From contig CAAFMK010000036.1 in the NCBI GenBank assembly GCA_900763995.1, positions 1 through 55,588 on the forward strand: a stretch of DNA of 55,588 nt, written 5' to 3'. Numbering within the stretch: the first letter of the stretch is position 1; every line of letters starts with the position of its first letter. Shown one piece after another: positions 2,405-50,773 of the stretch. The position numbers and the translations under genes were made by a program. The notes beneath the pieces were generated by a model. The model had not been told where the DNA came from. It saw only the letters and a list, made by a program, of their open reading frames with translations, and made no database searches. Origin of the DNA: an uncultured Oscillospiraceae bacterium (GTDB taxonomy: Bacteria; Bacillota; Clostridia; Oscillospirales; Oscillospiraceae).

Positions 2405-2660
2405 ACATCAAAATGCGCAGAAAAGGACGAGTACCTGCCCCCAATACGCACAGAGAGCCGCCGGTTCGGTGCAAGGCGGACGGGAGGGGACTGGGAAAAT
2501 CACCTTGGAGCATGGGACTGAATGTTTAGTAGGTTCCACGGCCGCCCCCGTTACCGGGCCGATGCTTAAGTGGTCGGAGTACTGCGCTCCGGCAAGAAGA
2601 GTGGTACCGCAGAGGAGTTTCGCCTTTGTCTCTTTGTTGAGACAAAGGCGTTTTTGTTTT
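2405..2660 (+). promoter_or_regulatory. T-box riboswitch (Ile)
   Basis: Stem I motifs CAGAGAG and GGTGCAA, specifier GAAA-ATC (AUC at 2499-2501), T-box AGAGTGGTACCGC at 2598-2610, terminator CGCCTTTGTCTC/GAGACAAAGGCG with T-tract at 2621-2660; upstream of ileS. Confidence 0.93.
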
Positions 2661-2712
2661 CCTATTATTTTTAAAAATAATGAGATCTATTTGTATTAGG
2701 AGGAACCCAGAT

Positions 2713-34048: not shown

Positions 34049-35905
34049 TCAGAGATGGAATATCTTTGCAATTTTATCCCCCTTGGGCATCAGCGCCAAA
34101 TCGTCTTTGGACAGCGCACCCAGCAGGATGACCAGCACCAGATAGATCACCATAGCCACCCCGATTGCCCCCAGTGTGGCAATGGCATTCCCTGTCCAGC
34201 TGATGACCCGAATGGTCTCCCCGTCAGGCACTCGGGACAGCAGACGAAATAGGAAGCCATACATGGCCCAGGCCGCACCGCCCATAATGACAGAGGCGAT
34301 CATAGGCTTTAGGAAAATCTGGCTGAACCGGGGGTGGTGGAGGATGACCCGGGACACCAAAATGAGATCCAGCCCCAAACACAACATAAAGCACAGCACA
34401 CTGCCGATGGGTGCCCCATAGATCCCCATGGTGGGCATACCCACCAGATTGTAGTTGGTCACAACCTTGACCGCACCACCCAGCACCATGACGATCACAG
34501 GCATAGTTACAAATCCATAGGCCTGGAGCACTGAGTTGCACACCAGCGTCACACAGGAGAATAGGGCAGTCAGCCCCAGGGTGGACAGCAGGGAGCCAGC
34601 CAGCTCCGCATTCAGGCTGGTAAACAGCAGCCGGATGATGGGGGTGCCCAGCACAAATAGACCCATACCCATAGGGAAGGAGACCAGCGCTGTGATGCGC
34701 AGAGCGGAGCCGGAGATACGGGCTGCCCCCCGGTAGTCATGGCGGGCCAGATTGCTGGACACCGCAGGAATGACAGAGGCGGTGATGGCCGCCATCAAAG
34801 AGGTGGGCAGGTTATAGATGTTGATCGCGCTGGAATAATTTCCATACAGCGTGCGGCTCACATCCTGGAGCGCATCATTGAGGGTCAGCACTGCGGTGTC
34901 CAGCGCCGTGGGGGCCTGACTTGCCAGGGCGTGCTCCACCTGCTGGGTGAGGGTGGCCATGTTGGCCGCTGCCCCAGAGCTCATGGCCTGTTTCCAGCCG
35001 CTGATGGCCCTATCCAATGTGGAGAAATCCACATGGCCGCTATATAAGACCCAGCTGCTGGGGTCCTCCAGCAGCACCCGCTGGAGCTGGCCCTGCACCA
35101 GAGCGGAGTCGATCACCGTCACAATCCCCACCATGGAGGAGCTGAGGGTGATGGGGATGGCAATGCACAAAATTTCCTTCAAAATGGTACCACTGCCATC
35201 GGGCACATCCCGGGACAGGTGGTTTTCATGTAAATTGCGCCGTATATGGTGAAATGCCATGTACACCACCGCCACAATGGTGCCCACTGTAACTCCTGTA
35301 ATGGCTCCAGCGGCGGCAGTATCCGCACTTTGCCCCATCCTGATCATCCAAAAAGCCAGACTCAGCCCCACAAAGAGCTTGCACAGGGCCTCAATGATCT
35401 GGGATACCGCAGTGGGGCCCATGTCCTCATGTCCCTGGGCATAGCCCCGGAAGGCGGACAGGCAGCCCACACACACCACGGCCGGGGCCAGGGCCCGGAT
35501 ACCGGCGGCGGCCTTGTCGTCATTCATCATAGCCGCCAGGGCATCGGCCTTGAAGAACATGATCAGAAAGGAGAGGGCACCCACCCCCAGAAACAGGGTC
35601 AGGGACAATCGGAAGATCTTTTTGACCTGGTTGCGCTTGCCAAGGGCATTGGCCTCAGAGACCAGCTTGGATACCGCAACGGGCAGTCCGGCGGTGGAGA
35701 TGGTAAGCAGTACGGAGTAGATATAGTAGGCGTTGTTGAAATCGGCGCTGCCCTGCTCCCCGATGATGTTGGTCAGGGGGATTTTGTAGAACATACCGAT
35801 TAGCTTGACCACCAGAATTCCTACGGCCAAAATGGCGGCACCGCCAAAAAAAGTGCTTTGCTTTTGTCCGCTTAACCGGCGGGGTGATGAATTATGCTGG
35901 GCCAT
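34049..35905 (-). CDS. MOP-family flippase (YabM/SpoVB/MurJ-like)
   Basis: GAAIL, YKIPL, STAGLPVAVSKLVS, FRGY.QG, PTAVSQIIE; yabM-mazG-hup-yabO synteny. Confidence 0.88.
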   Translation of the reverse strand: MAQHNSSPRRLSGQKQSTFFGGAAILAVGILVVKLIGMFYKIPLTNIIGEQGSADFNNAYYIYSVLLTISTAGLPVAVSKLVSEANALGKRNQVKKIFRLSLTLFLGVGALSFLIMFFKADALAAMMNDDKAAAGIRALAPAVVCVGCLSAFRGYAQGHEDMGPTAVSQIIEALCKLFVGLSLAFWMIRMGQSADTAAAGAITGVTVGTIVAVVYMAFHHIRRNLHENHLSRDVPDGSGTILKEILCIAIPITLSSSMVGIVTVIDSALVQGQLQRVLLEDPSSWVLYSGHVDFSTLDRAISGWKQAMSSGAAANMATLTQQVEHALASQAPTALDTAVLTLNDALQDVSRTLYGNYSSAINIYNLPTSLMAAITASVIPAVSSNLARHDYRGAARISGSALRITALVSFPMGMGLFVLGTPIIRLLFTSLNAELAGSLLSTLGLTALFSCVTLVCNSVLQAYGFVTMPVIVMVLGGAVKVVTNYNLVGMPTMGIYGAPIGSVLCFMLCLGLDLILVSRVILHHPRFSQIFLKPMIASVIMGGAAWAMYGFLFRLLSRVPDGETIRVISWTGNAIATLGAIGVAMVIYLVLVILLGALSKDDLALMPKGDKIAKIFHL

Positions 35906-38098: not shown

Positions 38099-38491
38099 TT
38101 ACAGCTTTGTTCCGCAGCTGCGGCAGAATCGATCATTTTTTCCACAGCGGGCGCTGCACACCGGGCAGGACTGGGCCTGGCGCAGATCGGCGATCCGGGC
38201 CTTTACCTCGGCGATCTTCTCCGCCATCTCGTCTGCCTGGGCCAGCAGCTGGGTGACCACATCCCCCTGTGGGAGCCGCCCCATATGGGTTTGATACATC
38301 ACCTGGCCCAGCTGGCACATAATGTCGTTGTACGCCCCATTGAGGTCAAACAGCTGCACATTCATCTTGGCCACATCCACCATCTGTCCCGCTCTTTTGC
38401 CAGCCACTCTGGCGGTGTCTGCGGCTGCATCGGCCGCTATGCCCGCGCCACCCCGAATCAGATCCAGCAGATCCTTTACCTTATCATCCAT
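38099..38491 (-). CDS. Hypothetical helical protein with a C-terminal zinc ribbon
   Basis: CPVC..CRSCG; AAAGGAG RBS. Confidence 0.8.
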   Translation of the reverse strand: MDDKVKDLLDLIRGGAGIAADAAADTARVAGKRAGQMVDVAKMNVQLFDLNGAYNDIMCQLGQVMYQTHMGRLPQGDVVTQLLAQADEMAEKIAEVKARIADLRQAQSCPVCSARCGKNDRFCRSCGTKL

Positions 38492-38537
38492 AAAAACGCG
38501 CTCCTTTCTGCATCATCGCTGCCTTTCGTGTCGCTAT

Positions 38538-38566
38538 ATTCTACACCAAGAATCCAAGGATTGCAA
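38538..38566 (-). promoter_or_regulatory. Promoter of the zinc-ribbon/punA/mtaD operon
   Basis: Minus strand TTGCAA-17 nt-TAGAAT. Confidence 0.65.
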
Positions 38567-38816
38567 CCAAAAAGGGGGGAGGCGAGGGCCATACACAGCC
38601 TCCCTTTTACTTTTTTGAACTCAAATCTCACACATTTTTTCAAATATCTTTCTATCCCATAATACCACAATGTTCTACAATTTTGGCATGAAAAGATGCC
38701 GAGGCTGCCTTCGGCTCTTTTCGGTATCCAGTATCGGTGAAGTGCGTGATTTAGTGAAATCACCGGAGTTCTACCCTATCCACACAAAGGTTAAAAGGGA
38801 GTACACAGCTTTTTCA

Positions 38817-38845
38817 TTGCTATTTCACCCAAGGGGTGGTAAAAT
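38817..38845 (+). promoter_or_regulatory. Promoter of the cell-wall operon
   Basis: TTGCTA-17 nt-TAAAAT with extended TG. Confidence 0.65.
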
Positions 38846-39005
38846 GAAAGGAATCTATACTCTGCTGTGTATGGTGGCTGGAGCGGGGTGGGTAAACTAT
38901 CCTCACGCTGGGCTGTTTTGCCAAATCACTGCCAGATCCAGCGGACTTTTTCAAATGGGGACTTGCCTGCCCCATTCCAAACCAGAGAAAAAAGGGGGCT
39001 TTGTT

Positions 39006-40073
39006 ATGCGCAAGCTGGTGATCGACCGCTCATCCATCAAGCATAACCTGTCCATCATCAAAGACCGGGCCGGGAATGCGGCCATCTATGGTGCACTGAC
39101 GGGGGACGGCGGTGGCGCTGGTATCATCCCTCTGGCTCAACTGCTGCGGGATGAGGGCATCGGCCGCTTTACCGTATCCGATATTCAGGAGGCCAAGCAG
39201 CTGCGGCAGGCCGGATTTGTGGAGGAGGAGATCCTCATGCTCCGGGCCACCACCGACCGCAGCGAGCTGGAGCAGCTGGTGGATCTGAATGTGGTGTGCA
39301 CCATCTCCTCTGTGGACACAGGCATGGCCCTCAACGCGCTGGCAGAAAACCGCTCCACCGTGGTAGAGGCCCACATTCAGGTGGACACCGGTATGGGCTT
39401 TGGGGGTTTTCTGGTCAGTGAGCCGGAAAAGCTGCTGCTGGCCTACCGCTCTTTGCCCAATGTGGCCCTGTCCGGCATATATACCCAGCTCCACACCGAC
39501 CAGTCCAACAGCTCCGGCTCCGCCCACCAGCTGGCGCAGTTTGAGCAGGTGCTAGAGGTGATCCGCACCGCCGGGTTTGAAACTGGAACAGTCCATGCCG
39601 CCGGCTCCTTCGCCCTGCTCCACAACGACGGGGCCATTCTGGATGCCGTCCGGGCGGGCTCTGCCATTTTAGGGCGGTGCCGCCGCACCAAGGACGACAG
39701 GCTCCGGGTGGTGGGCTATGGACAGGCCCCCCTGACCGAAGTGCGCTGGCTGCCCAAGGGGCACAGTGTGGGCACTGAGCGGCCCGTTATTCTCAAGCGG
39801 CCCACCCGGGTGGCGGTACTCCCTGTGGGGTACCAGAACGGCTATGGGGTCACCCGGCCCCAGCCGGAAACCTTCTTTGCGGCCTTTCGGGGCTGGAAGC
39901 AGTCCCGCCGCCGCACTGTGCGCATTGGCGACCAGCGGGCCAAACTTCTGGGGGCCATCGGCACCACAGAGACTATTTTGGATGTGACCAACCTGAAATG
40001 CTCCACCGGAGATCTGGCCATCTTTGAATTAGATCCCCTGTTTGCCAAAGGCTTTACCTTGGAATACCGATAA
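39006..40073 (+). CDS. Alanine-racemase-fold protein lacking the catalytic Lys and Tyr
   Basis: HNL, EA..LR.AG, HIQVDTGMG, VRAGSA and PVGY..G show the Alr fold; GALTGDGGGAG replaces AVVKANAYGHG; VGTE replaces VGYG. Confidence 0.8.
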   Translation: MRKLVIDRSSIKHNLSIIKDRAGNAAIYGALTGDGGGAGIIPLAQLLRDEGIGRFTVSDIQEAKQLRQAGFVEEEILMLRATTDRSELEQLVDLNVVCTISSVDTGMALNALAENRSTVVEAHIQVDTGMGFGGFLVSEPEKLLLAYRSLPNVALSGIYTQLHTDQSNSSGSAHQLAQFEQVLEVIRTAGFETGTVHAAGSFALLHNDGAILDAVRAGSAILGRCRRTKDDRLRVVGYGQAPLTEVRWLPKGHSVGTERPVILKRPTRVAVLPVGYQNGYGVTRPQPETFFAAFRGWKQSRRRTVRIGDQRAKLLGAIGTTETILDVTNLKCSTGDLAIFELDPLFAKGFTLEYR

Positions 40074-40091: not shown

Positions 40092-41309
40092 ATGTCAAAT
40101 TCTCTCTCCTTCCAGCCCCTGCTCTTTGGTGGGGACATCAATGTATACAGTGTGGCCCGGGCCTTTCATGAGGCCTATGGGGTGCGCTCCATCGCCTACG
40201 GCAAGTACCCCTCCTTCCCCTGCCACGGCAGCGCCATTCTGGACTACCGGGTGTGCCCCAACAACGAGGACACCCAGGCCTTCCGCCAGAATGTGGAGAC
40301 TGTGTCCCGGGAATTTCCCGACAAAAAAGTGCTGCTGCTGGGGTGTGGAGACAGCTATGTGCAGCTTGCCGCCCACTGCAAGGACAGTTTCCCCGAAAAT
40401 GTCATCGCCCCCTACATTGATGGACAGCTGCTGGATACCCTGATCGACAAGGAGCAGTTTTATGCCCTGTGCGACCAGTACGGGGTAGACCACCCGGCCA
40501 CCTTTATCTATGATGGCTCCATGGGCCACGACTTCACCCTGCCCTGGGGCGGGCCCTACATCGCCAAGCCCGCTGACAGCGTGGCCTACTGGGACTGTGG
40601 AGACCACTCTCTGGCCAAGGTGTACATCTGCGACAGCTGGCAGGAGCTGCTGGACAGCCTTGACCATGTCTACGCCGCTGGGTATCAGGGCCACATGGTA
40701 CTACAGGAGTTCATCCCCGGGGATGACAGCTATATGCGGGTGCTCACCAACTACTCCGACCACAACGGACAGGTGAAGCTGATGTGTCTGGGCCATGTGC
40801 TGCTGGAGGAGCACTCCCCCCACGGCATTGGCAACCACGCCGTCATCATCACCGAGCACGATGAGGCGCTGGAGCAGAAGATCAAGGGCCTGCTGGAGCG
40901 CCTGCACTATGTGGGCTTTTCCAACTTCGACATCAAATATGACAGCCGGGACGGCAAGTATAAGGCCTTTGAGATCAACTGCCGCCAGGGCCGGAGCAAC
41001 TACTATGTCACCGGGGCGGGCCACAACATCGCCAAGCTGGTGGTGGAGGACTATGTACAGGGCAAAGAGCTGCCCCTTGTCATCACAAAAAACCGCTCCC
41101 TGTGGCGGATGGTTCCCAAACATGTGGCCTTTAAATTCACCCCCAAAAAGTACCATCAGGAGATGCGGGCCCTTATCCGGGCCGGGGCGGACAGCCACTC
41201 TCTGGTCTATCAGAAGGACAGCGCCCTCAAGCGCCGTCTGCGGGTGTTGAAAAACCATCTGGGCAACATCAAGCGCTTTGACCAGTACAACCGCATTCCA
41301 AAAGACTAA
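40092..41309 (+). CDS. ATP-grasp carboxylate-amine ligase, D-aspartate ligase (Asl/YxbA)-like
   Basis: GGDINVYSVARAFHEAYG, DKEQFY, KPADS, QEFIPGDD, NFDIKYD, FEINCRQGRSNYY. Confidence 0.85.
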   Translation: MSNSLSFQPLLFGGDINVYSVARAFHEAYGVRSIAYGKYPSFPCHGSAILDYRVCPNNEDTQAFRQNVETVSREFPDKKVLLLGCGDSYVQLAAHCKDSFPENVIAPYIDGQLLDTLIDKEQFYALCDQYGVDHPATFIYDGSMGHDFTLPWGGPYIAKPADSVAYWDCGDHSLAKVYICDSWQELLDSLDHVYAAGYQGHMVLQEFIPGDDSYMRVLTNYSDHNGQVKLMCLGHVLLEEHSPHGIGNHAVIITEHDEALEQKIKGLLERLHYVGFSNFDIKYDSRDGKYKAFEINCRQGRSNYYVTGAGHNIAKLVVEDYVQGKELPLVITKNRSLWRMVPKHVAFKFTPKKYHQEMRALIRAGADSHSLVYQKDSALKRRLRVLKNHLGNIKRFDQYNRIPKD

Positions 41310-41329: not shown

Positions 41330-42049
41330 ATGCCAAATTACCGTCTGGGTGTGCTGGGGGGCATGGGCCCCCAGGCCACTAACACCTTTTACCAGTTTAT
41401 CCTTGACCGCACCGATGCACAGCGGGATCAGGATCACCTCAGTGCCCTGATTTTGTCCGACAGCCAGATGCCTGACCGGACTGCCGCCATTTTGGGTACC
41501 CAGCAGGAGAAACAGGCCGTCTTTGACCGTCTGCTCTCCGATGCCCGTCTGCTGGAGGGGGCTGGCTGCACAGTCATCGCCGTCCCCTGCAACACCTCCC
41601 ACTTTTTTCTTGACCAGGTACAGCAGGAAATTGGAATCCCTATCCTCCACATGATTCGGGAGACCGCCCAGCAGCTGGCCCGCCAGGGGTGCAGGCACCC
41701 GGGGATCCTGGCCACAGACGGCACCATCCGCACTGGGCTCTACCAAAAGGAATTTGCCGCTGTGGGCATTGAGGCGGTCACCCCATCCCCACAGGCTCAG
41801 GCAATGGTCATGTCCCTCATTTATGAGGACATCAAGGCCGGGCGGGATGCTGACCCACAGCAGTTTGCCGCCATCCACGCCGACCTCCTCCAGCAGGGCT
41901 GCGACTGTGGGGTGCTGGCCTGCACCGAGCTGTCCGTCTTTGGGGACAGGCACCATCTGCCCCCCTTTTACACTGACGCAATGGCGGTGCTGGCTGAACG
42001 GGCGGTGCTGTCCTGTGGAAAACCCCTGCGCCACATTTTCATGCAATAG
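41330..42049 (+). CDS. racD: Aspartate racemase (Asp/Glu racemase family)
   Basis: GVLGGMGPQAT, DQDH, PDRT, PCNTSH, LACTELS (both catalytic Cys present). Confidence 0.88.
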   Translation: MPNYRLGVLGGMGPQATNTFYQFILDRTDAQRDQDHLSALILSDSQMPDRTAAILGTQQEKQAVFDRLLSDARLLEGAGCTVIAVPCNTSHFFLDQVQQEIGIPILHMIRETAQQLARQGCRHPGILATDGTIRTGLYQKEFAAVGIEAVTPSPQAQAMVMSLIYEDIKAGRDADPQQFAAIHADLLQQGCDCGVLACTELSVFGDRHHLPPFYTDAMAVLAERAVLSCGKPLRHIFMQ

Positions 42050-42058
42050 AGGTGCGTT

Positions 42059-44422
42059 ATGGTACACACACTACATGATTATCTCTCCTTACTCAAAGAT
42101 CATGCGCTGCTCTCAGCTCCCATTCCAGAGGGCCTTGATCCCTCTGCTCCAGTGGCGCTGGTGTCCTACGACTCCCGCCAGGTGGCGCCAGGCACCCTGT
42201 TTTTGTGCAAGGGTGCCCATTTTAAACCGGAATTTCTGGAGATGGCCAAGGCGGGGGGTGCCGTTGCCTATGTGAGCCAGACCCCATACCCCCAGGTGGA
42301 TCTGCCCTGCATTCTGGTAAATGATATGCGCCAGACCATCGCCCCGCTGGCAGACCTCTTTTACGGCCATCCATCTCAGACCTTAAAAGTCATTGGTCTT
42401 ACCGGCACCAAGGGCAAGTCCTCCACCGCCTACTATCTGAAATACATTTTAGATGAGTATATGGCCCAGCAGGGCAGGGGGGAGAGCGGTATCATCTCCT
42501 CCATTGACACCTACGACGGGGTGGAGCGCTTTGAGTCCCATCTGACCACCCCGGAGCCGCTGGAGCTCCAGCGGCACTTTGCCCACGGGTTGGAGACTGG
42601 GATGGAGTACCTCACCATGGAGGTATCCAGTCAGGCTCTGAAATACCACCGCACCCTCTGCACCCAGTTTGCCGCCACCTGTTTTCTCAACATCGGCACC
42701 GACCACATCTCCCCCATTGAGCACCCGGACTTTGAGGACTACTTCTCCTCCAAGCTGAAAATTTTCACCCAGGGGGCCATCAACTGTGTCAATCTGGACT
42801 GCGACCACGCAGACCGCATCCTTCAGGCCGCCCAGCAGGCGGGCAGACCTCTGTTCACCTTCTCCCAGACCAATGAGCAGGCCGATGTATACGCCTCTCA
42901 GGTGCGCAAGCGGGGCAATGACATCCTGTTCCGGGTCAAGACCCGGCGGTTTCTCCGGGAGTTCCGCCTGACCATGCCGGGGCTGTTCAATGTAGAAAAC
43001 GCGCTGGCGGCCATCGCCGTATGCGAGGGACTGCAAATTCCGGAGCGGTGCATCTATGTGGGCCTGATGAAGGCCCGGGTGCCCGGGCGAATGGAGGTCT
43101 ACTCCAACGCAGATGACACCGTCATTGCCATTGTGGACTACGCCCACAACCGCATGAGCTTTGAGACCCTGTTCCGCTCTGTTCAGGCCGAGTACCCAGG
43201 TCGGCGGATCGTCACCGTCTTTGGCTGTCCGGGGAAAAAAGCCCTGGATCGGCGGCGGGATCTGGGGGAGGTCTCGGGAAAATACTCTGATCTGGTCATC
43301 CTCACCGAGGAGGACAGCGGGGAGGAGGACACCCAGACCATCTGTGAGGAGATCGCTGGCCATGTGGCACAGCAAAACTGTGAGTACTCCATCGAGCCCA
43401 ACCGGGGCGAGGCCATCCGGCAGGCCATTTTGGGGTGCAGCCAGCCCTCTGTTTTGCTCATCACCGGCAAGGGGGCTGAGACCCGCCAGAAGCGGGGCAC
43501 CCAGTATATCGACACCCCATCTGATGTGGACTATGTACACAGCTTCCTCCATGAGTACGATGTACAGCATGGGCTGGACGGCATGGAGAAGGTGCGCAGT
43601 CTGCTGTCCCTTCTGCCCATCCTCAAGCGCCACGAGGGTAAAACTGTGGTGGTCAAATACGGCGGCTCTGCCATCGGGGCCGAGTCTGACCGGGACACCA
43701 CCTTACAGGATGTAGCCGCCCTGCGGATGGTTGGAATGCGGGTGGTGCTGGTACACGGGGGCGGCAAGCACATCACCGCCCTGCTGGACAAGCTCCATGT
43801 GCCCACCCGCTTTGAAAATGGCTATCGGGTCACCGATGAGGCCGCACTGGGTGCCGCCGAGCTGGCCCTGTCCGCACAGGTCAACAAGGCCATTGTCAGC
43901 GATCTGGCACAGCTGGAGGTGTCCGGCGTGGGCCTGTCGGGCAAGGACGGGGGTCTTATCACCGCCGCTGTGAAAGACCCCGCTCTGGGCCGGGTGGGTA
44001 CCATCACCAAGGTCAATCCCAAGGTGCTCAACACCCTGCTGGACGCCGACTTTTTGCCTGTCATTTCCCCCATCGCACTGGGGGAGGACGGCGGCGGGCT
44101 CAACTGCAACGCCGATGACGCCGCCCGGGCGGTGGCCGAGGCCCTTGGGGCGGAGAGCCTTGTTTTCCTCACCGACATCGGGGGTATCCTCATCGACAGC
44201 CACAACAGCAAGACCGCCGTAGACCGCATGGACATCAAGCGGGCCCAGGAGCTGATCGAGACCGGGCTGATCGCCGGGGGCATGGTGCCCAAGGTACAGG
44301 GCTGCATCCACGCCATCCGCGGCGGGGTGGGGGAGGTCTCCATTCTGGATGGCCGGGTGGAGCACGCACTGCTGCTGCATATGCTGGGCCAGCGCTCCTC
44401 CGGCACCACCATTACCGGATGA
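42059..44422 (+). CDS. murE-argB: MurE-type UDP-MurNAc-tripeptide synthetase fused to N-acetylglutamate kinase
   Basis: MurE: GLTGTKGKSS, LTTPE, MEVSS, GRME, VDYAHN. ArgB from Met509 (43583): VVKYGG, VHGGG, GYRVT, NCNADD, LTDIGG, GGMVPK. One continuous 787-aa frame. Confidence 0.92.
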   Translation: MVHTLHDYLSLLKDHALLSAPIPEGLDPSAPVALVSYDSRQVAPGTLFLCKGAHFKPEFLEMAKAGGAVAYVSQTPYPQVDLPCILVNDMRQTIAPLADLFYGHPSQTLKVIGLTGTKGKSSTAYYLKYILDEYMAQQGRGESGIISSIDTYDGVERFESHLTTPEPLELQRHFAHGLETGMEYLTMEVSSQALKYHRTLCTQFAATCFLNIGTDHISPIEHPDFEDYFSSKLKIFTQGAINCVNLDCDHADRILQAAQQAGRPLFTFSQTNEQADVYASQVRKRGNDILFRVKTRRFLREFRLTMPGLFNVENALAAIAVCEGLQIPERCIYVGLMKARVPGRMEVYSNADDTVIAIVDYAHNRMSFETLFRSVQAEYPGRRIVTVFGCPGKKALDRRRDLGEVSGKYSDLVILTEEDSGEEDTQTICEEIAGHVAQQNCEYSIEPNRGEAIRQAILGCSQPSVLLITGKGAETRQKRGTQYIDTPSDVDYVHSFLHEYDVQHGLDGMEKVRSLLSLLPILKRHEGKTVVVKYGGSAIGAESDRDTTLQDVAALRMVGMRVVLVHGGGKHITALLDKLHVPTRFENGYRVTDEAALGAAELALSAQVNKAIVSDLAQLEVSGVGLSGKDGGLITAAVKDPALGRVGTITKVNPKVLNTLLDADFLPVISPIALGEDGGGLNCNADDAARAVAEALGAESLVFLTDIGGILIDSHNSKTAVDRMDIKRAQELIETGLIAGGMVPKVQGCIHAIRGGVGEVSILDGRVEHALLLHMLGQRSSGTTITG

Positions 44423-44436
44423 TCCGGCATCATATC

Positions 44437-44479
44437 AAAAAAAACTGGACGGCTGAACAACTCAGCCATCCAGTTTTTT
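44437..44479. terminator. Bidirectional terminator
   Basis: AAAAAACTGGACGGCTGA/TCAGCCATCCAGTTTTTT. Confidence 0.85.
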
Positions 44480-44488
44480 ACTGTTCGA

Positions 44489-46417
44489 TCACCCTATTTC
44501 AGCGGCGGCAGGGCGAAACAGCTCCCCATCGTCCTGGATGATCCCGTTTTCCTTCAGCCAGTCCAGGGTATGTCTGGCCTGGGGCTGAAGGGTAACACCA
44601 ATGCGGTACTGCCTTTGATAGCTGGTGTCTCCGCCTACATAGCTATAGCCCCTCATATCCTCAGAGCTCTGGTCATCCCCTATGATCCAAATAAACTCCG
44701 CATAGGGGGTGGCATAGTCCGATGTTTCCCCATCAGGTGCAAACAGGGTGTGTATACCCAGATTTTTCTCTTGCATATCCTGGCACACAGCGTTCCACAG
44801 GCCCTTCAAGTCCTCTGTCTGGTCTTTCAGATAGAGGGTGGTCATCTCGCCATTTTCCCTTCGTACATTGTCCACATATGCCTCAAGGAGTACCCCCCGA
44901 TCATAGAAATCCATGTCATATCGGATACGAACCATATCCTCATCCTGCAAGATCTGCTGGGCGTACCAAGTCAGGGTGCCCTCCTGCTCCAGCTCCTCTC
45001 GATAGACTGGTACACCGTAGTAGGAGCGCTCCAGAGTAGTGCCGTTTTTCAGCTTGTATATCAGCTGGAAGGAGATATAGTCGTCTCCATTCCCCCTGTC
45101 CTTTGCATCCACAGCGCCCTGGTGCAGCCCTACGGCATATTCGATCAGCTCCTTATCACTGCCAAAGAGGGAGAGCCCCCGGTACGAGTGGGGATACCCA
45201 AAGCTCCCCCCAGAGGACAGCTCCACCCGCTCCACCTGATCCACGGTGGGCACCCGTTTCTCCACACCAAACACATCGAACATACACACCAGAGCGATGG
45301 CCAGCATGGCCGCCACTGCCGCCACACAGCCCTTCCACGACTTTTGTACACGGAATGTCTGCTTGAGCAGCATCTCAGCCACAAAATAGCCAATGGCGGT
45401 ACACACCAGCATACTGGATACCATGGGGATGGAGGAGTTGTAGTACCAGCCAAAAAACTCGCTGACCAGCGTGCCCAGACACAGGCCGGAGCACAGGGCC
45501 ACCCCATACTTAAAGATGGGTTTGACCACAGGGACAGTGACCACATCCCCAGCGCTCTCAATGTGCCGGTGGCGATAGATGTATAAAGACACAACGGTGA
45601 GCAAAAGCCCCACTCCGGTATAGATGGCGATGTCTGTTGGGCTTTGCAGATGATACACCCGGGTGTAGATGTCTCCATCCTGCATCACCTTCTCCGGCCA
45701 CCACATACAGGCCCGCTGAAGCCGGATGAAGGGGGTGAGGTAATCTGAGAGTACAAAGGATGATGCACTGTAGCCGTAGTAGAAGCTGCGCATCATCTGA
45801 ACCACCAGAGAGCTGAGCACCATGACCAGACAATTCAAAATGCCATAGAAAATGGGCAGTGCCAGTATGTTTCCGGTAAACATGGCGCAGAATGTGGCAA
45901 AGGAGTAGAAGAACAGGCACACCCCAGCCATCGCCAGCTCCAAAATGAGCAGGGGCTTCATCATGGTGGGCCAGAGTGACGGATCTGGTACCAGAGACAT
46001 CTGGACAATGACCATCAGCACACCTGCCCCAGCCAGGGGCACCAGCAGCATGGACAGGCCCGCCAGATACTGGGTGGTGAATATGGTCTCCCGGCGCATG
46101 GGCAGCGCGTGCATCATGCAGGCCGAGCGGTTGTTGTACAGATAGCCAAAGGATGCCATGGCCACCAGCACCCCAACAGCCATAGCCATCATCACCCCAA
46201 ACATCATAAGTTCGGGCAGGGACTTGCTGGCGTTGATGATGGTTTCTCTGGCATTTGCAACAGAGCCTCCCCAGCGCATCTCATCAAAATATCGACTGAG
46301 CAGATTGAAGGGCATGAGAAACAGCCACATGACTCCCCACAAAGCCCACAAAGGCCAGAACCGTGTTATGGTTTTGCGGTACAGGGTGGAATTAAAGTAC
46401 GATGTCTCGGACACCAT
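44489..46417 (-). CDS. ABC transporter permease with a C-terminal soluble domain
   Basis: Many TM helices, HALPMRRE motif; overlaps the ABC ATPase gene. Confidence 0.82.
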   Translation of the reverse strand: MVSETSYFNSTLYRKTITRFWPLWALWGVMWLFLMPFNLLSRYFDEMRWGGSVANARETIINASKSLPELMMFGVMMAMAVGVLVAMASFGYLYNNRSACMMHALPMRRETIFTTQYLAGLSMLLVPLAGAGVLMVIVQMSLVPDPSLWPTMMKPLLILELAMAGVCLFFYSFATFCAMFTGNILALPIFYGILNCLVMVLSSLVVQMMRSFYYGYSASSFVLSDYLTPFIRLQRACMWWPEKVMQDGDIYTRVYHLQSPTDIAIYTGVGLLLTVVSLYIYRHRHIESAGDVVTVPVVKPIFKYGVALCSGLCLGTLVSEFFGWYYNSSIPMVSSMLVCTAIGYFVAEMLLKQTFRVQKSWKGCVAAVAAMLAIALVCMFDVFGVEKRVPTVDQVERVELSSGGSFGYPHSYRGLSLFGSDKELIEYAVGLHQGAVDAKDRGNGDDYISFQLIYKLKNGTTLERSYYGVPVYREELEQEGTLTWYAQQILQDEDMVRIRYDMDFYDRGVLLEAYVDNVRRENGEMTTLYLKDQTEDLKGLWNAVCQDMQEKNLGIHTLFAPDGETSDYATPYAEFIWIIGDDQSSEDMRGYSYVGGDTSYQRQYRIGVTLQPQARHTLDWLKENGIIQDDGELFRPAAAEIG

Positions 46418-47294
46418 AGTGCTCACCTCCCATTTCATAAATAAAGATCTCCTCCAAAGACAGAGGCAGGGCCTCCATCAGGATGGGGGAGTACACCGCC
46501 ATACGGGTGCGCACTTCGGCGGGATTGCCCCGGACGATGAGGGTAAAGACCCGGCCCAGCTGGCTTTTGTGGAGCACATTCAGATCCTCTGGCAGCTTTG
46601 GCAGCTCACCATCCTGAAAGGCCAGCTGGAGCTTGACCACATTGTCCTGCAAATCGTTCAGTGACCGCTCCAGCAGCACCTTTCCGTGGGAGAGCACCCC
46701 CACATGGTCACACACATCCTCCAGCTCCCGCAGGTTGTGGGAGGAGACCAGCACTGTGGTGCCCCGCTGGGCCACATCCCCCATGAGCAGTGACCACACC
46801 TGTCGGCGCATCACCGGGTCAAGGCCGTCCACCGGCTCATCCAGCACCAGCAGCTCCGGGTCGCAGCACAGACTCAGCCAGAAGGCGCTCTGCTTTTGCA
46901 TCCCCTTGGACAGGCGGCGGATGGGCTGGTTCTGATCCACCTCGGGGAAGGCATCCTTCAAGGCCTCAAACCGTCTGGTATCGAATCTGGGGTAGATCCC
47001 CTTATAAAACTTCATCATATCCCGGGTGGATGCGGAGACAAAATAGTAGAGCTCATCGGGAATGGCGGCAATTTTGCTCTTGACCGTCGGATTTTCATAT
47101 ACCGGCTGTCCGTCCACGCTGACAGAGCCGGAGTCGGGGCGGTAAATCCCCATAATATGCCGCAAGATGGTGGATTTGCCCGCTCCGTTGGGGCCCACCA
47201 GTCCATAGATGGAGCCCTTCTCCACCGTCATGGACAGACCGTCTAACGCCCGGAACCCGTCAAAGGTTTTGACTACATTGTTGACCTGTATCAT
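46392..47294 (-). CDS. ABC transporter ATP-binding protein (YtrB-like)
   Basis: GPNGAGKST, LSKGM, VLDEP, SSH. Confidence 0.95.
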   Translation of the reverse strand: MIQVNNVVKTFDGFRALDGLSMTVEKGSIYGLVGPNGAGKSTILRHIMGIYRPDSGSVSVDGQPVYENPTVKSKIAAIPDELYYFVSASTRDMMKFYKGIYPRFDTRRFEALKDAFPEVDQNQPIRRLSKGMQKQSAFWLSLCCDPELLVLDEPVDGLDPVMRRQVWSLLMGDVAQRGTTVLVSSHNLRELEDVCDHVGVLSHGKVLLERSLNDLQDNVVKLQLAFQDGELPKLPEDLNVLHKSQLGRVFTLIVRGNPAEVRTRMAVYSPILMEALPLSLEEIFIYEMGGEHYGVRDIVL

Positions 47295-47890: not shown

Positions 47891-48697
47891 ATGTATCAGA
47901 AGATCGGTTTTATTGGTACTGGAAATATGGGGGCTGCCATTGCCACCGCGGCCAGCAAAAGCGGGCTGGCACAGGAGATTTTGCTGGCCAACCGCACCCC
48001 AGCCAAGGCCCAGATCCTGGCCCAGCGGCTGGGAGGGGCAGAGGTCACAGAGAATAAAACCATCGCCCAGCAGTGCCAGCTGATTTTTCTAGGGGTAAAG
48101 CCACAGATGATGGCCCAGGTGCTGGAGGAGCTCACCCCGGTACTGAGTCAGCGGCAGGACGGCTTTTTGCTGGTGACCATGGCCGCCGGGATCACCTGCG
48201 CCCGGATCCAGGAGCTGGCGGGGGTGAACTGCCCCATTATCCGCATGATGCCCAATACCCCCTGCGCCATTGGGGCCGGGGTGATCCAATACTGCGGTCT
48301 GGGGGCCACACAGCAGCAGCTTGACGACTTTGCCGCCCTCATGGCCCCCGCCGGGCTGGTAGACCCGGTGGCTGAACATCTCATTGACGCCTCCAGCGCT
48401 GTATCCGGCTGCGGCCCCGCCTTTGCCTATTTGTTTATGGAGGCCCTAGCGGACGGAGGTGTGGCCTGCGGCCTGCCCCGGGACAAGGCCCTGGCCTACG
48501 CCGCCCAGATGACCGCCGGTGCGGCCCAGATGGTGCTGGAACACAAGCAGAACCCGGGGGCGTTGAAGGACGCCGTCTGTTCCCCCGGAGGCACCACCAT
48601 TCAGGGGGTGCGTACACTGGAGGAACAGGGATTCCGGGGGGCTGCTATGGATGCGGTCATTGCCGCCTATGAAAAAACTTTGACACTGCACGGATGA
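47891..48697 (+). CDS. proC: Pyrroline-5-carboxylate reductase
   Basis: GFIGTGNMG, VKPQ, RMMPNTP, SGCGPA, VCSPGGTT. Confidence 0.96.
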   Translation: MYQKIGFIGTGNMGAAIATAASKSGLAQEILLANRTPAKAQILAQRLGGAEVTENKTIAQQCQLIFLGVKPQMMAQVLEELTPVLSQRQDGFLLVTMAAGITCARIQELAGVNCPIIRMMPNTPCAIGAGVIQYCGLGATQQQLDDFAALMAPAGLVDPVAEHLIDASSAVSGCGPAFAYLFMEALADGGVACGLPRDKALAYAAQMTAGAAQMVLEHKQNPGALKDAVCSPGGTTIQGVRTLEEQGFRGAAMDAVIAAYEKTLTLHG

Positions 48698-48713
48698 AAG
48701 AGAGGCTATTTGT

Positions 48714-49502
48714 ATGCGTATGGTAGTAAAGGTTGGTACCTCCACTCTGGCCCACGCCACCGGGCGGCTCAATATCCGCCATGTGGAGCAGCTGGTCAAG
48801 GTGCTATCCGATTTGAAAAATGCGGGACATGAACTGATCCTTGTCTCCTCCGGTGCCATCGGTATGGGGGTGGGCAAGCTGAACCTCCCCGGCCGCCCCT
48901 CCGATATGCCCACCAAGCAGGCGGCGGCAGCGGTTGGCCAATGCGAGCTGATGTATACCTATGACAAGCTCTTTGCCCAGTATAATCACACAGTGGCCCA
49001 GATCCTGCTCACCAGTGAGGATGTGGAGCACCCCGAGCGGCGGCGCAACTTTGAAAACACCATGGCCCGCCTGCTGGAGCTGGGCACCCTGCCCATCATC
49101 AATGAGAACGACACCGTTGCCACCGCAGAGATCACCGTGGGGGACAACGACACTCTGGGGGCCATTGTGGCCTGCTGTGTAAATGCCGATCTGCTGGTGC
49201 TCCTGTCTGACATCGAGGGGCTGTACACCGCCGATCCCCGTCAGGACACCTCTGCCAAGCTCATCCCCGTGGTGGAGGAGGTCACCCTTGACATTGAGGC
49301 GCTGGCCGGTGGAAAGGGCAGCGATCTGGCGGTAGGGGGTATGGCCACCAAGCTGCGGGCGGCCAAACTGGTCACCGCTCAGGGCTGTGACATGGTCATC
49401 ACCAACGGGGAACACCCCAGCCGTCTTTATGACATCGCCAGCGGGCAGGCCGTTGGCACACGCTTTTTGGGAAAGAGCACATCTCCCACACCGCCGCTGT
49501 GA
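48714..49502 (+). CDS. proB: Glutamate 5-kinase (no PUA domain)
   Basis: VVKVGTS, SSGAI, AAAVGQ, INEND, GDNDTL, GGMATK. Confidence 0.96.
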   Translation: MRMVVKVGTSTLAHATGRLNIRHVEQLVKVLSDLKNAGHELILVSSGAIGMGVGKLNLPGRPSDMPTKQAAAAVGQCELMYTYDKLFAQYNHTVAQILLTSEDVEHPERRRNFENTMARLLELGTLPIINENDTVATAEITVGDNDTLGAIVACCVNADLLVLLSDIEGLYTADPRQDTSAKLIPVVEEVTLDIEALAGGKGSDLAVGGMATKLRAAKLVTAQGCDMVITNGEHPSRLYDIASGQAVGTRFLGKSTSPTPPL

Positions 49503-49516
49503 AAGGGGTCTATTGT

Positions 49517-50773
49517 ATGACGACACAAGAACTTCTTCTCCAGGCTCGGCAGGCCAGACAGGCCATGGGGAGGGCAGATACCGCACAAAAAAACGCCGCT
49601 TTACTGGCTATGGCCGCCGCTTTGGAGGCCAACTGTTCCGCCATTCTTTCCGCCAATGCGCTGGACTGTCAGGCCGCACGGGCCACTGTGTCTGAGGTGA
49701 TGCTGGACCGGCTCACCCTGGATGAGGGGCGCATTGCCGCCATGGCCCACGGCATTCGGGAGGTGGCCGCCCTGCCAGATCCTGTGGGGGCGGTGCTGAA
49801 CCGGGTGGAGCGCCCCAACGGGCTGGTCATTGAAAAGATCGCCGTTCCCATGGGGGTCATTGCCATCATCTACGAGTCCCGGCCCAATGTCACCGCCGAC
49901 GCCGCCGCACTGGCCATCAAGGCGGGCTCTGCCTGTGTCCTCCGTGGCGGCAAGGAGGCCCATCGCTCCGCCGCCGCCATTGTGGACGCCCTCCATCAGG
50001 GGCTGGAGCAGGCGGGACTGCCCCGGGATACTGTGAACCTTGTGGAGGACACCACCCGCCAGTCAGCCCAGGAGCTGATGCAGGCCCGGGGGCTGGTGGA
50101 TCTGCTCATCCCCCGGGGCGGGGCGGGGCTCATTCGGGCCTGTGTGGAGCAGGCCTGTGTCCCTGTTTTGGAGACAGGCACCGGCATCTGCCACATCTAT
50201 GTGGACAAATGCGCCCAGTTGGACATGGCTCTGGACATTGTGGAAAATGCCAAGTGTTCCCGGCCCTCTGTGTGCAACGCCGCTGAGGTGTGCCTGGTGC
50301 ACAGGGATGTGGCAGAGGAATTTCTGCCCCAGCTGCAAAAGCGGCTGACCAGTGATCGCACAGCTCAGGGGCTCATCCCTGTGGAGCTGCGTGTGGATGC
50401 CAAAGCCGCCGCCTTGATCCCCGGCACCCCCGCTGGTGAACACGACTTTGACACTGAGTTTTTGGACTATATTCTGTCCATCAAGGTGGTGGATCACCTG
50501 GAGGAGGCCATCTCCCACATCGCCGGCCACTCCACCGGCCACTCTGAGGCCATCATTACCGCAGACCAAACACGGGCACAGGACTTTTTGATGCAGGTGG
50601 ACTCCTCCGCCGTCTACTGGAACGCCTCCACCCGCTTTACAGACGGGGGCGAGTTCGGCCTGGGCTGTGAGATGGGCATCTCCACCCAGAAGCTCCATGC
50701 ACGGGGGCCCCTTGGGCTCTTTGAGCTGTGCACCTACAAATATATCCTGAAAGGGACTGGACAAATCCGCTGA
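49517..50773 (+). CDS. proA: Gamma-glutamyl phosphate reductase
   Basis: IYESRPNVT, IPRGG, SVCNAAE, NASTRFTDG, ISTQKLHARGP. Confidence 0.97.
   Translation: MTTQELLLQARQARQAMGRADTAQKNAALLAMAAALEANCSAILSANALDCQAARATVSEVMLDRLTLDEGRIAAMAHGIREVAALPDPVGAVLNRVERPNGLVIEKIAVPMGVIAIIYESRPNVTADAAALAIKAGSACVLRGGKEAHRSAAAIVDALHQGLEQAGLPRDTVNLVEDTTRQSAQELMQARGLVDLLIPRGGAGLIRACVEQACVPVLETGTGICHIYVDKCAQLDMALDIVENAKCSRPSVCNAAEVCLVHRDVAEEFLPQLQKRLTSDRTAQGLIPVELRVDAKAAALIPGTPAGEHDFDTEFLDYILSIKVVDHLEEAISHIAGHSTGHSEAIITADQTRAQDFLMQVDSSAVYWNASTRFTDGGEFGLGCEMGISTQKLHARGPLGLFELCTYKYILKGTGQIR

Follow-up and report, generated by a model that had tools for sequence, protein, structure and literature searches.

Why would a ligase of the peptidoglycan stem peptide and a kinase of the arginine pathway be made as one polypeptide? 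The question is raised by a stretch of DNA of 55,588 nucleotides from an uncultured Oscillospiraceae bacterium (assembly GCA_900763995.1, contig CAAFMK010000036.1; hereafter the window), in which a single open reading frame (ORF) of 787 residues, without an internal stop, encodes a MurE ligase followed by an N-acetylglutamate kinase (NAGK). This gene, here termed MurE2-ArgB2, is a genuine and conserved fusion under selection. It stands last in an accessory operon of wall-precursor genes; it and the first gene of that operon are extra copies beside a housekeeping diaminopimelate (DAP)-type MurE, ArgB and alr. Each domain is of a textbook family, and databases already hold the protein; what appears to be new is the combination of the two.

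A Genuine and Conserved Fusion

The fusion gene (42059-44422, plus strand) encodes a three-domain ligase (residues 1-505) joined directly to the kinase (residues 506-787). Pfam assigns Mur_ligase_M to residues 115-322, Mur_ligase_C to 343-472 and AA_kinase to 528-763. In NCBIfam, the murE model TIGR01085 is matched over the N-terminal 485 residues with 294.9 bits (cut-off 257.3), and the argB model TIGR00761 over residues 529-762 with 233.3 bits (237.6 bits in the genome-wide argB search; cut-off 151.3). The features of the gene are as follows.

42050-42054 (+): Shine-Dalgarno sequence AGGTG of the fusion gene, 4 nt 5' of the start codon (ATG, 42059) and immediately behind the stop codon of the racemase gene
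42059-43573 (+): MurE2 part, residues 1-505, a predicted non-DAP MurE paralogue (TIGR01085 above cut-off)
43310-43321 (+): EDSG, residues 418-421 within TEEDSGEE, at the position of the DAP-binding DNPR (alignment to 8G6P and 2WTZ)
43559-43585 (+): junction from D501 to M509 (DVQHGLDGM), without an added linker (alignment of 79 sequences)
43574-44422 (+): ArgB2 part, residues 506-787 and stop codon, N-terminal helix included (TIGR00761 above cut-off)
43583-43639 (+): N-terminal helix, approximately residues 509-527, without the aromatic residue of the arginine site (Ile521 for the canonical Tyr; alignment)
44378-44407 (+): degenerate arginine-site motif HMLGQRSSGT (canonical E-L-F-(T/S)-x-x-G-x-G-T; motif regular expression)

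An initial annotation, made from the letters of the window alone, had described a MurE and a kinase in one frame without a stop, joined through HEYDVQHGLDG, and no strong ribosome-binding site before Met509; the domain matches and the junction itself bear this description out. The junction reads ...HEYDVQHGLDGMEKV..., with the ATG of Met509 at 43583, and no AGGAGG-like site is found in the bases 5' of this ATG (gggctggacggc). Residue counts here and below are based on 79 unique fused orthologue sequences, which span 58-100% identity. The residue equivalent to Met509 is Met in 56 of these and Leu in the other 23, and a conserved internal start is thus unlikely. Asp501, His504 and Asp507 are invariant, and alignment columns 490-515 contain no gap in any of the 79 sequences.

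A fused frame in a metagenome-assembled genome (MAG) might have been created by the assembly, or by read-through, from two separate genes, and the draft genome is indeed fragmented (202 contigs, 90% complete); a 283-residue ArgB2-type protein with a GTG-type start is also encoded on a contig of 1,335 bp. We consider the probability of such an artefact to be negligible, and regard it as refuted by intact frames in three sets of sequences and by the indel-free junction. The uninterrupted frame occurs in isolates as well as in MAGs of many studies. Within a family sample of 121 genomes, comprising one per genus except for the window's own genus, the full-length fusion is encoded without stops in 14, at 58-100% identity. 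Over 120 protein clusters (772-835 residues, 80-100% identity) from NCBI, ENA, JGI and Logan assemblies, found by a word-indexed search, share the same three Pfam domains. Scanning the GTDB species genomes with the junction segment gave 510 relatives, the best 80 of which all span the junction; a script recovered an intact ORF of 781-827 residues from 68 of these 80 loci, several of the remaining 12 being on short contigs or at contig ends.

Four public sequencing runs that were examined gave short contigs of relatives, two of which span the junction: that in X1 crosses it without a gap (43484-43711, three mismatches), as does a relative in X7 (43565-43721). The stop or frameshift that the initial annotation had named as the mark of an assembly artefact or a one-off read-through is seen neither at the junction of the 79 fused sequences nor in the bridging contigs. 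Named carriers include Lawsonibacter, Pseudoflavonifractor phocaeensis, Pseudoflavonifractor capillosus, Flavonifractor sp. An100, Flintibacter faecis, Muriventricola aceti, Evtepia gabavorous, Candidatus Enterenecus, Intestinimonas sp. and [Clostridium] viride DSM 6836. NCBI names the fusion protein "acetylglutamate kinase" only, a public name that hides the ligase half of the 787-residue protein.

Second Copies beside Housekeeping murE, argB and alr

The initial annotation had taken the fusion to be the cell's own MurE and ArgB. Its view of a conserved fusion with an apparently intact kinase stands, but this assignment does not, since a DAP-type murE (in the order spoVD-murE-mraY) and an argB (in the order argJ-argB-argD) exist separately in the same genome. 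The housekeeping murE (MurE1) is on contig C76, between the gene for a SpoVD-type penicillin-binding protein and mraY; its product scores 505 bits, higher than MurE2, passes the DAP-ligase equivalog NF001126 (562 bits; cut-off 373) and carries the motif SDNPRSE. MurE2 is 27-29% identical to the MurE1 of its own genome (tblastn, fused loci). The housekeeping ArgB (ArgB1, 290 residues) is encoded on contig C200 between argJ and argD, where the argJ, argD and second argB whose presence elsewhere in the genome the initial annotation had left open are all found, and a canonical alr (370.7 bits) is on contig C191.

Of the 14 family genomes with the fusion, 12 also encode ArgB1; neither ArgB1 nor ArgJ was seen in G031 (89% complete) and G084 (83% complete), but as these are incomplete MAGs and the arg genes are one locus, this does not argue for loss of the arginine pathway. 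Both proteins are encoded in all five fused genomes of named species (P. capillosus is also among the 14), and ArgJ, found in the window's genome as well, is single-copy in each of the five, so that only the controlling step is duplicated.

The absence of other arg genes near the fusion, as first described, was also borne out: the sole other AA_kinase match in the window, at 49056-49397, is inside a proC/proB/proA cluster (Pfam scanning covered the ORFs of 31-53 kb, and the annotation of 1-28 kb covers a T-box leader and the adjacent large ORF only). This proline-synthesis-like cluster (47891-50773, plus strand) encodes a P5C reductase, a 262-residue AA_kinase protein and an aldehyde dehydrogenase.

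The Amino Acid Substrate of MurE2

MurE2 matches MurE structures in the PDB over approximately residues 30-482, with a best score of 186 bits, and is distant from DAP- and Lys-type enzymes alike. In comparison with the DAP-adding MurEs of E. coli (1E8C) and M. tuberculosis (2WTZ) and the L-Lys-adding MurEs of S. aureus (4C12) and T. maritima (4BUB), MurE2 has the three-domain architecture and the P-loop (GTKGKSS in 78 of the 79 orthologues, with Thr at position 122 in one), but differs in an acidic TEEDSGEE in place of DNPR or DNPA, in its C-terminal kinase, and in the presence of a DAP-type MurE in the same genome. The acidic motif, TEED[SAP]GEE, is conserved in all 79 fused orthologues, and DNPR of the DAP-type structures 8G6P and 2WTZ is replaced by EDSG. 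In DAP-type MurE, DNPR binds the distal carboxylate of DAP through its Asn and Arg; S. aureus MurE has DNPA and an acidic pocket that favors Lys and also admits ornithine (PMC3829189, in excerpt). MurE2 also fails to reach the cut-off in any of the NCBIfam equivalog models for DAP- or L-Lys-adding MurE; for the L-Lys model NF010628 the score is 318.9 bits (cut-off 536), and Lys may nonetheless be the substrate.

Judged by its motif, MurE2 is not of DAP type. The loss of DNPR and its acidic substitute suggest a cationic diamino acid without a distal carboxylate (ornithine, lysine or similar), of which L-ornithine would be the favored candidate and L-lysine the alternative. The presence, or near presence, of lysA in all five genomes does not discriminate between the two. 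One class of unfused MurE2 has TEDDPGPE, with Asp at the first motif position; that the longer acid of the fused forms faces a side chain one methylene shorter, and would thus fit ornithine, is speculation, and the substitution tracks the fusion imperfectly. The same paper (PMC3829189) ascribes lysine incorporation in S. aureus to the size of the pool and not to the specificity of the enzyme, which provides a rationale for control of the pool.

The Kinase Half and Its Arginine Site

Residues 5-280 of ArgB2 align with residues 4-277 of T. maritima NAGK (2BTY; 221 bits), the N-terminal helix included. The initial annotation had judged the kinase residues intact, and the wider alignment agrees: Lys533, Gly535/Gly536, Gly567-569, Gly588, Arg590, Asn682/Asn684, Asp686 and Lys745 are invariant in 79/79 orthologues. 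The catalytic and N-acetylglutamate (NAG)-binding residues listed for ecNAGK in the consulted part of PMC3236213 (Lys8, Gly11, Gly44, Gly64, Arg66, Asn158 and Lys217) all have their equivalents in ArgB2, again in 79/79. For a broader comparison we used a canonical set of 116 NAGKs (20 family ArgB1 sequences and 96 representatives) and considered columns conserved in at least 85%; ArgB2 keeps 47 of these 50 columns, a figure to be read with the bias that the 96 representatives were drawn from ArgB2's own best matches. By these residues, ArgB2 looks catalytically active.

The arginine site is different. Its signatures, as described in that part of PMC3236213, are the motif E-L-F-(T/S)-x-x-G-x-G-T and a Tyr of the N-terminal helix (Tyr15 of tmNAGK). 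A regular expression for the motif matches 0/79 ArgB2 sequences, compared with 20/20 ArgB1 and 72/96 representatives; the first Gly of the motif (position 780) is kept in a single ArgB2. Likewise, no ArgB2 has an aromatic residue (Tyr, Phe or Trp) at the helix position, which is Tyr in 20/20 ArgB1. ArgB2 matches the hexameric arginine-inhibited NAGKs (2BTY from T. maritima, 2BUF from P. aeruginosa and 2RD5 from A. thaliana) end to end, and differs from them in standing behind a 505-residue MurE and in the absence of both the helix Tyr and the arginine-site motif. These motifs suggest that ArgB2 is insensitive to arginine.

ArgB2 and ArgB1 of one genome are 37-47% identical. In a kinase tree of 130 rows, with one odd representative dropped, ArgB2 forms one clade (SH-aLRT 95) and ArgB1 another (98), and ArgB2 is not nested within ArgB1; its nearest neighbors are long-branched NAGKs that likewise lack both arginine-site signatures. 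A recent duplication of the housekeeping argB as the origin of ArgB2 is rejected on the basis of these separate clades and the low identity.

The Accessory Operon

The operon comprises four genes on one strand, 9-20 nt apart, in which the fusion gene stands last. Its other features are as follows.

38817-38845 (+): sigma-70-like promoter match TTGCTA-17-TAAAAT (9/12, with a TG extension), a weak candidate (sequence scan)
39006-40073 (+): AlrL, a paralogous pyridoxal phosphate-dependent racemase, which opens the operon and probably starts at 39006 (Pfam Ala_racemase_N and _C)
40092-41309 (+): putative ATP-grasp carboxylate-amine ligase of 405 residues, candidate D-aspartate ligase (NF009402, cluster names)
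41330-42049 (+): aspartate-type racemase of 239 residues (Pfam Asp_Glu_race)
44439-44479 (both strands): bidirectional intrinsic terminator (A-run, hairpin, T-run) closing the operon (-24 kcal/mol, z = -7.5)

AlrL scores below the cut-off of the alr model TIGR00492 (135 bits; cut-off 168), and its best PDB matches are the VanT serine racemase 4ECL and the lysine racemase 4DZA. The start at 39006 has a GGGGG ribosome-binding site on its 5' side; the ORF lister begins the frame at 38670 (467 residues, 112 extra codons), the extension having no Pfam match. The leader of 0.5 kb ahead of AlrL contains the promoter-like site and a small hairpin (38698-38715). Six promoter-like sites occur in the region, where 2.3 are expected, and 38817-38845 is thus merely a candidate. 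No riboswitch or leader RNA ahead of the operon was found with Rfam over the window or by a permissive scan of 38100-39100.

The 405-residue protein has a weak match to the ATP-grasp model NF009402 and Atlas cluster names of the type "carboxylate--amine ligase/ATP-grasp". The following gene product is an aspartate-type racemase by TIGR00035 (asp_race; 204 bits, cut-off 93) and by its best PDB match, the Pyrococcus aspartate racemase 1JFL (163 bits). It also passes the cysteate racemase (CuyB) equivalog NF052483 (204.5 bits; cut-off 190), and by models alone it may act on aspartate or on cysteate. Downstream of the fusion gene, none of 200 shuffled sequences is as stable as the terminator at 44439-44479, and the next genes are those of an ABC transporter on the minus strand (44489-47294).

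The ligase and racemase genes accompany MurE2 across the family. Of the 14 fused loci, 10 have both genes beside MurE2; among the other four, two have the racemase only (short flank), one has the ligase only and one is cut by a contig end. At the unfused MurE2 loci (12 fetched of 16), ligase and racemase are both present in nine, the ligase only in one, and neither in two. AlrL occurs in part of the clade only. Farther out, the neighbors differ between loci: relA/spoT, genes for an M16 peptidase or a sulfatase-family protein and, in P. capillosus, the gene for an additional Mur ligase. This last protein, of 480 residues, is a complete Mur ligase (Pfam Mur_ligase, _M and _C) encoded directly downstream of the fusion (L106, 7784-9223, plus strand; equivalent to G080:C140:255-1616) and is approximately 37-40% identical to both MurE1 and MurE2.

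Two further observations concern the wider surroundings. Divergent to the operon and approximately 3 kb upstream of it, 34049-35905 (minus strand) encodes a 618-residue flippase of the MurJ/Polysacc_synt/MatE type. Toward the start of the window, a T-box leader (RF00230, 114.8 bits; 2409-2636, plus strand) lies directly 5' of a 950-residue ORF (2680-5532, plus strand), which by eye resembles a class I aminoacyl-tRNA synthetase and is probably ileS.

The pairing of a putative ATP-grasp gene with an adjoining aspartate racemase gene recalls AslA/Aslfm and RacD of Lactococcus lactis and Enterococcus faecium, a likeness drawn from gene context and labels; here the pair is tied to a MurE paralogue and a kinase. 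In L. lactis, AslA (an ATP-grasp D-aspartate ligase) and racD form one operon and provide a D-Asp bridge on L-Lys, and L. fermentum has L-Orn at position 3 of the stem peptide (both from an excerpt of PMC4155827). On the predicted activities of its gene products, the accessory module should yield a non-DAP, probably D-Asp-branched stem peptide beside the DAP machinery.

Fused and Unfused Forms

The second NAGK occurs in fused form only. In five genomes with unfused MurE2 (94-100% complete) there is exactly one argB above cut-off in each, and no stand-alone ArgB2 of more than 50% identity was found among 1.84 billion representatives, bar one 283-residue call. This call (P0122, a single sequence on the 1,335-bp contig mentioned above) was rejected as an unfused ArgB2 and is probably a fragment; its first residue is Met where the close fused relative G031 has Val. 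One unfused form, G050, ends in ...EYDQAHGS*, exactly at the position of the join, with an unrelated gene next to it downstream. The fusion may have been gained once and kept, or gained once and then lost in G050.

NAGK is found in other fusions, all of which differ from the present one in their partners. From the best 150 representatives, twelve proteins, picked mostly for unusual length, were scanned, and gave ArgB-ArgD (three), ArgJ-ArgB (three), ArgB-OTC (one) and GNAT-ArgB (one); Mur_ligase with AA_kinase occurred among the twelve only in P0124, this clade's own representative. ArgJ-ArgB, ArgB-ArgD, ArgB-OTC, GNAT-ArgB and NAGS/K resemble MurE2-ArgB2 in that AA_kinase is fused to another enzyme, but their partners are enzymes of the arginine pathway where here it is a Mur ligase (PMC3236213, as far as the excerpt extends). 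Two side observations from this survey are a MatE/MurJ-like-AA_kinase fusion (P0150, 636 residues, on a contig of 3.3 kb), which may be a mis-join, and argB matches within frames of 707-750 residues (G032:C20:4894-5715, G104:C42:7463-8305 and G037:C14:306074-306913), which fit the ArgB-ArgD fusions seen in P0137, P0248 and P0254.

Mur ligases, in turn, are found fused to enzymes of their own pathway, as in MurE-MurF (NF008896; PDB 8F5D, "Multifunctional fusion protein") and MurF-Alr (NF008897); a MurF-like-Alr chimera is described in Phocaeicola dorei (PMC13726279, in excerpt). In contrast to these, the partner in MurE2-ArgB2 is a kinase of the arginine pathway, whose reaction precedes any possible MurE substrate by three steps. 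Isozymes dedicated to the wall exist without fusion: DapG of Bacillus subtilis, a DAP-sensitive aspartokinase I, is an isozyme of the amino acid kinase family that serves the supply of the wall's diamino acid. Two third-position residues in one cell likewise occur without a fusion in Lysinibacillus sphaericus, where the vegetative wall has Lys-D-Asp and the spore cortex DAP.

What the Fusion May Do

The best single reading of these data is still one that the initial annotation had offered, that the fusion ties ornithine supply to ornithine ligation, although the support for it is indirect. In the form that we tentatively prefer, a possibility rather than a probability, the operon is a Lys/Orn-D-Asp wall-precursor module in which a kinase without feedback sensitivity is attached to MurE2 and sustains the availability of ornithine. 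MurE2 would add L-ornithine (or L-lysine) at position 3 of the stem peptide, and the ATP-grasp ligase would attach D-Asp, made by the racemase, to the side-chain amine. The product would be a stem peptide of the Orn/Lys-D-Asp type found in lactococci and enterococci. ArgB2 would be a working N-acetylglutamate kinase without arginine feedback, present in a fixed 1:1 ratio with MurE2. As it would not be shut off by arginine, the step that controls ornithine synthesis would keep running for as long as the module is expressed, and ornithine would remain on hand for the wall when arginine would shut down the housekeeping kinase; the remaining steps (ArgC/D/J) would be borrowed from the housekeeping set. 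This proposal draws on the absence of both arginine-site signatures from ArgB2, the absence of DNPR from MurE2, and the same-pathway partners of other NAGK fusions.

Several observations weigh against this proposal. The MurE2 module occurs without a second kinase in at least 16 of the 121 sampled genera, which argues that MurE2 does not need the kinase in order to work, and G050, which ends at the join, may nest inside the fused clade (FastTree phylogeny, with a support of only 0.17). The three nearest unfused relatives of the fused clade (G050, G102 and G067) share its Glu at the first DNPR position. Only the kinase step is duplicated, so ornithine supply would still hang on housekeeping genes, whose expression may be repressed. 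Three steps separate NAGK from ornithine, and the fusion provides stoichiometry and co-regulation but no channelling. The arginine insensitivity is read from motifs, and ArgB2 is less conserved than ArgB1 between genera (mean identity 60% and 73%, respectively; lower in 34 of 36 pairs). The candidate D-aspartate ligase has no Pfam family and no sequence match in the PDB, and the automatic JGI label "D-aspartate ligase" is attached to four of the 120 orthologue clusters listed. Our literature search found no wall chemotype for any carrier; genus descriptions, which may hold one, were outside its scope.

A more modest explanation, which we consider fairly unlikely, is that ArgB2 is a general, feedback-insensitive second NAGK that was joined to MurE2 by the harmless loss of a stop codon, its tie to the wall being shared transcription. 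In its favor, all canonical NAGK residues are kept, the join is end-to-end at the natural C terminus of MurE2, MurE2 does without the fusion in 16 sampled genera and possibly lost the kinase again in G050, and ArgB2 evolves faster than ArgB1. However, a harmless joining does not readily account for a second NAGK that is never alone (one argB in each of five unfused genomes and no credible stand-alone form), for a junction that is free of indels in 79 sequences of 58-100% identity with Asp501, His504 and Asp507 invariant, or for persistence of the fusion over many genera; other NAGK fusions, moreover, pair with pathway partners. The fixed length of the junction and its invariant residues would suit a kinase that serves mainly as a scaffold or sensor, oligomerizing MurE2 through NAGK dimers or hexamers or gating it in response to N-acetylglutamate, ATP or another nitrogen signal, in which case MurE2 may add L-lysine. 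Such a role would have a parallel in bacterial N-acetylglutamate synthase (NAGS), where the amino acid kinase domain provides regulation and oligomerization. ArgB2 retains the N-terminal helix, through which dimers are connected in the hexameric NAGKs, though without its arginine-site residues, and in NAGS and NAGS/K amino acid kinase (AAK) domains act as arginine-binding regulatory modules (PMC3236213, in excerpt). We nevertheless regard such a role as unlikely: regulatory AAK domains do not need the full catalytic and NAG-binding set, which is invariant here, and the part of ArgB2 that has decayed is the arginine site, the one known allosteric site of the family.

The physical tie to an enzyme that binds wall precursors, together with the standing of ArgB2 as a fast-evolving clade of its own apart from ArgB1, raises the prospect that the kinase has taken on a new substrate in place of free N-acetylglutamate, readying that substrate for amidation or further ligation. 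This appears very improbable, as the equivalents of Gly64, Arg66 and Asn158 and 47 of 50 conserved columns are unchanged and the argB equivalog-domain model TIGR00761 is passed well above its cut-off; with the NAG pocket unchanged a bulky nucleotide-sugar substrate is unlikely, since the pocket should have been reshaped to receive it. Very improbable too is that the kinase has left arginine metabolism and, rigidly fixed to MurE2, phosphorylates a carboxylate of the N-acyl-D-glutamate precursor or of the D-Asp branch in preparation for another modification, or acts as a metabolite-gated switch that sets when a non-DAP (Orn/Lys-D-Asp) wall is made in place of the DAP wall. Were the switch to prove true, common gut Clostridia would be able to change their peptidoglycan chemotype in a programmable way, which would affect host NOD1 sensing.

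Implications for Gut Oscillospiraceae

The initial annotation knew of no characterized example of this architecture, and our literature search, which did not extend to supplements, likewise found no paper on a MurE-NAGK protein. As far as the literature searched extends, MurE2-ArgB2 would be the first protein to unite a Mur ligase with the enzyme that controls ornithine synthesis. Cultured carriers exist, and each half-reaction can be followed with a standard assay.

The predicted activities of the module hint at a second, non-DAP wall type beside the DAP machinery in a clade of gut Oscillospiraceae that is abundant in this environment (Lawsonibacter, Pseudoflavonifractor, Evtepia, Flintibacter, Intestinimonas-like organisms and [Clostridium] viride). 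Whether a wall contains DAP or Lys/Orn decides its recognition by host NOD1 and by peptidoglycan-recognition proteins. The combination of the two enzymes suggests that, in these bacteria, supply of the third-position amino acid may be managed by a private, feedback-free isozyme.

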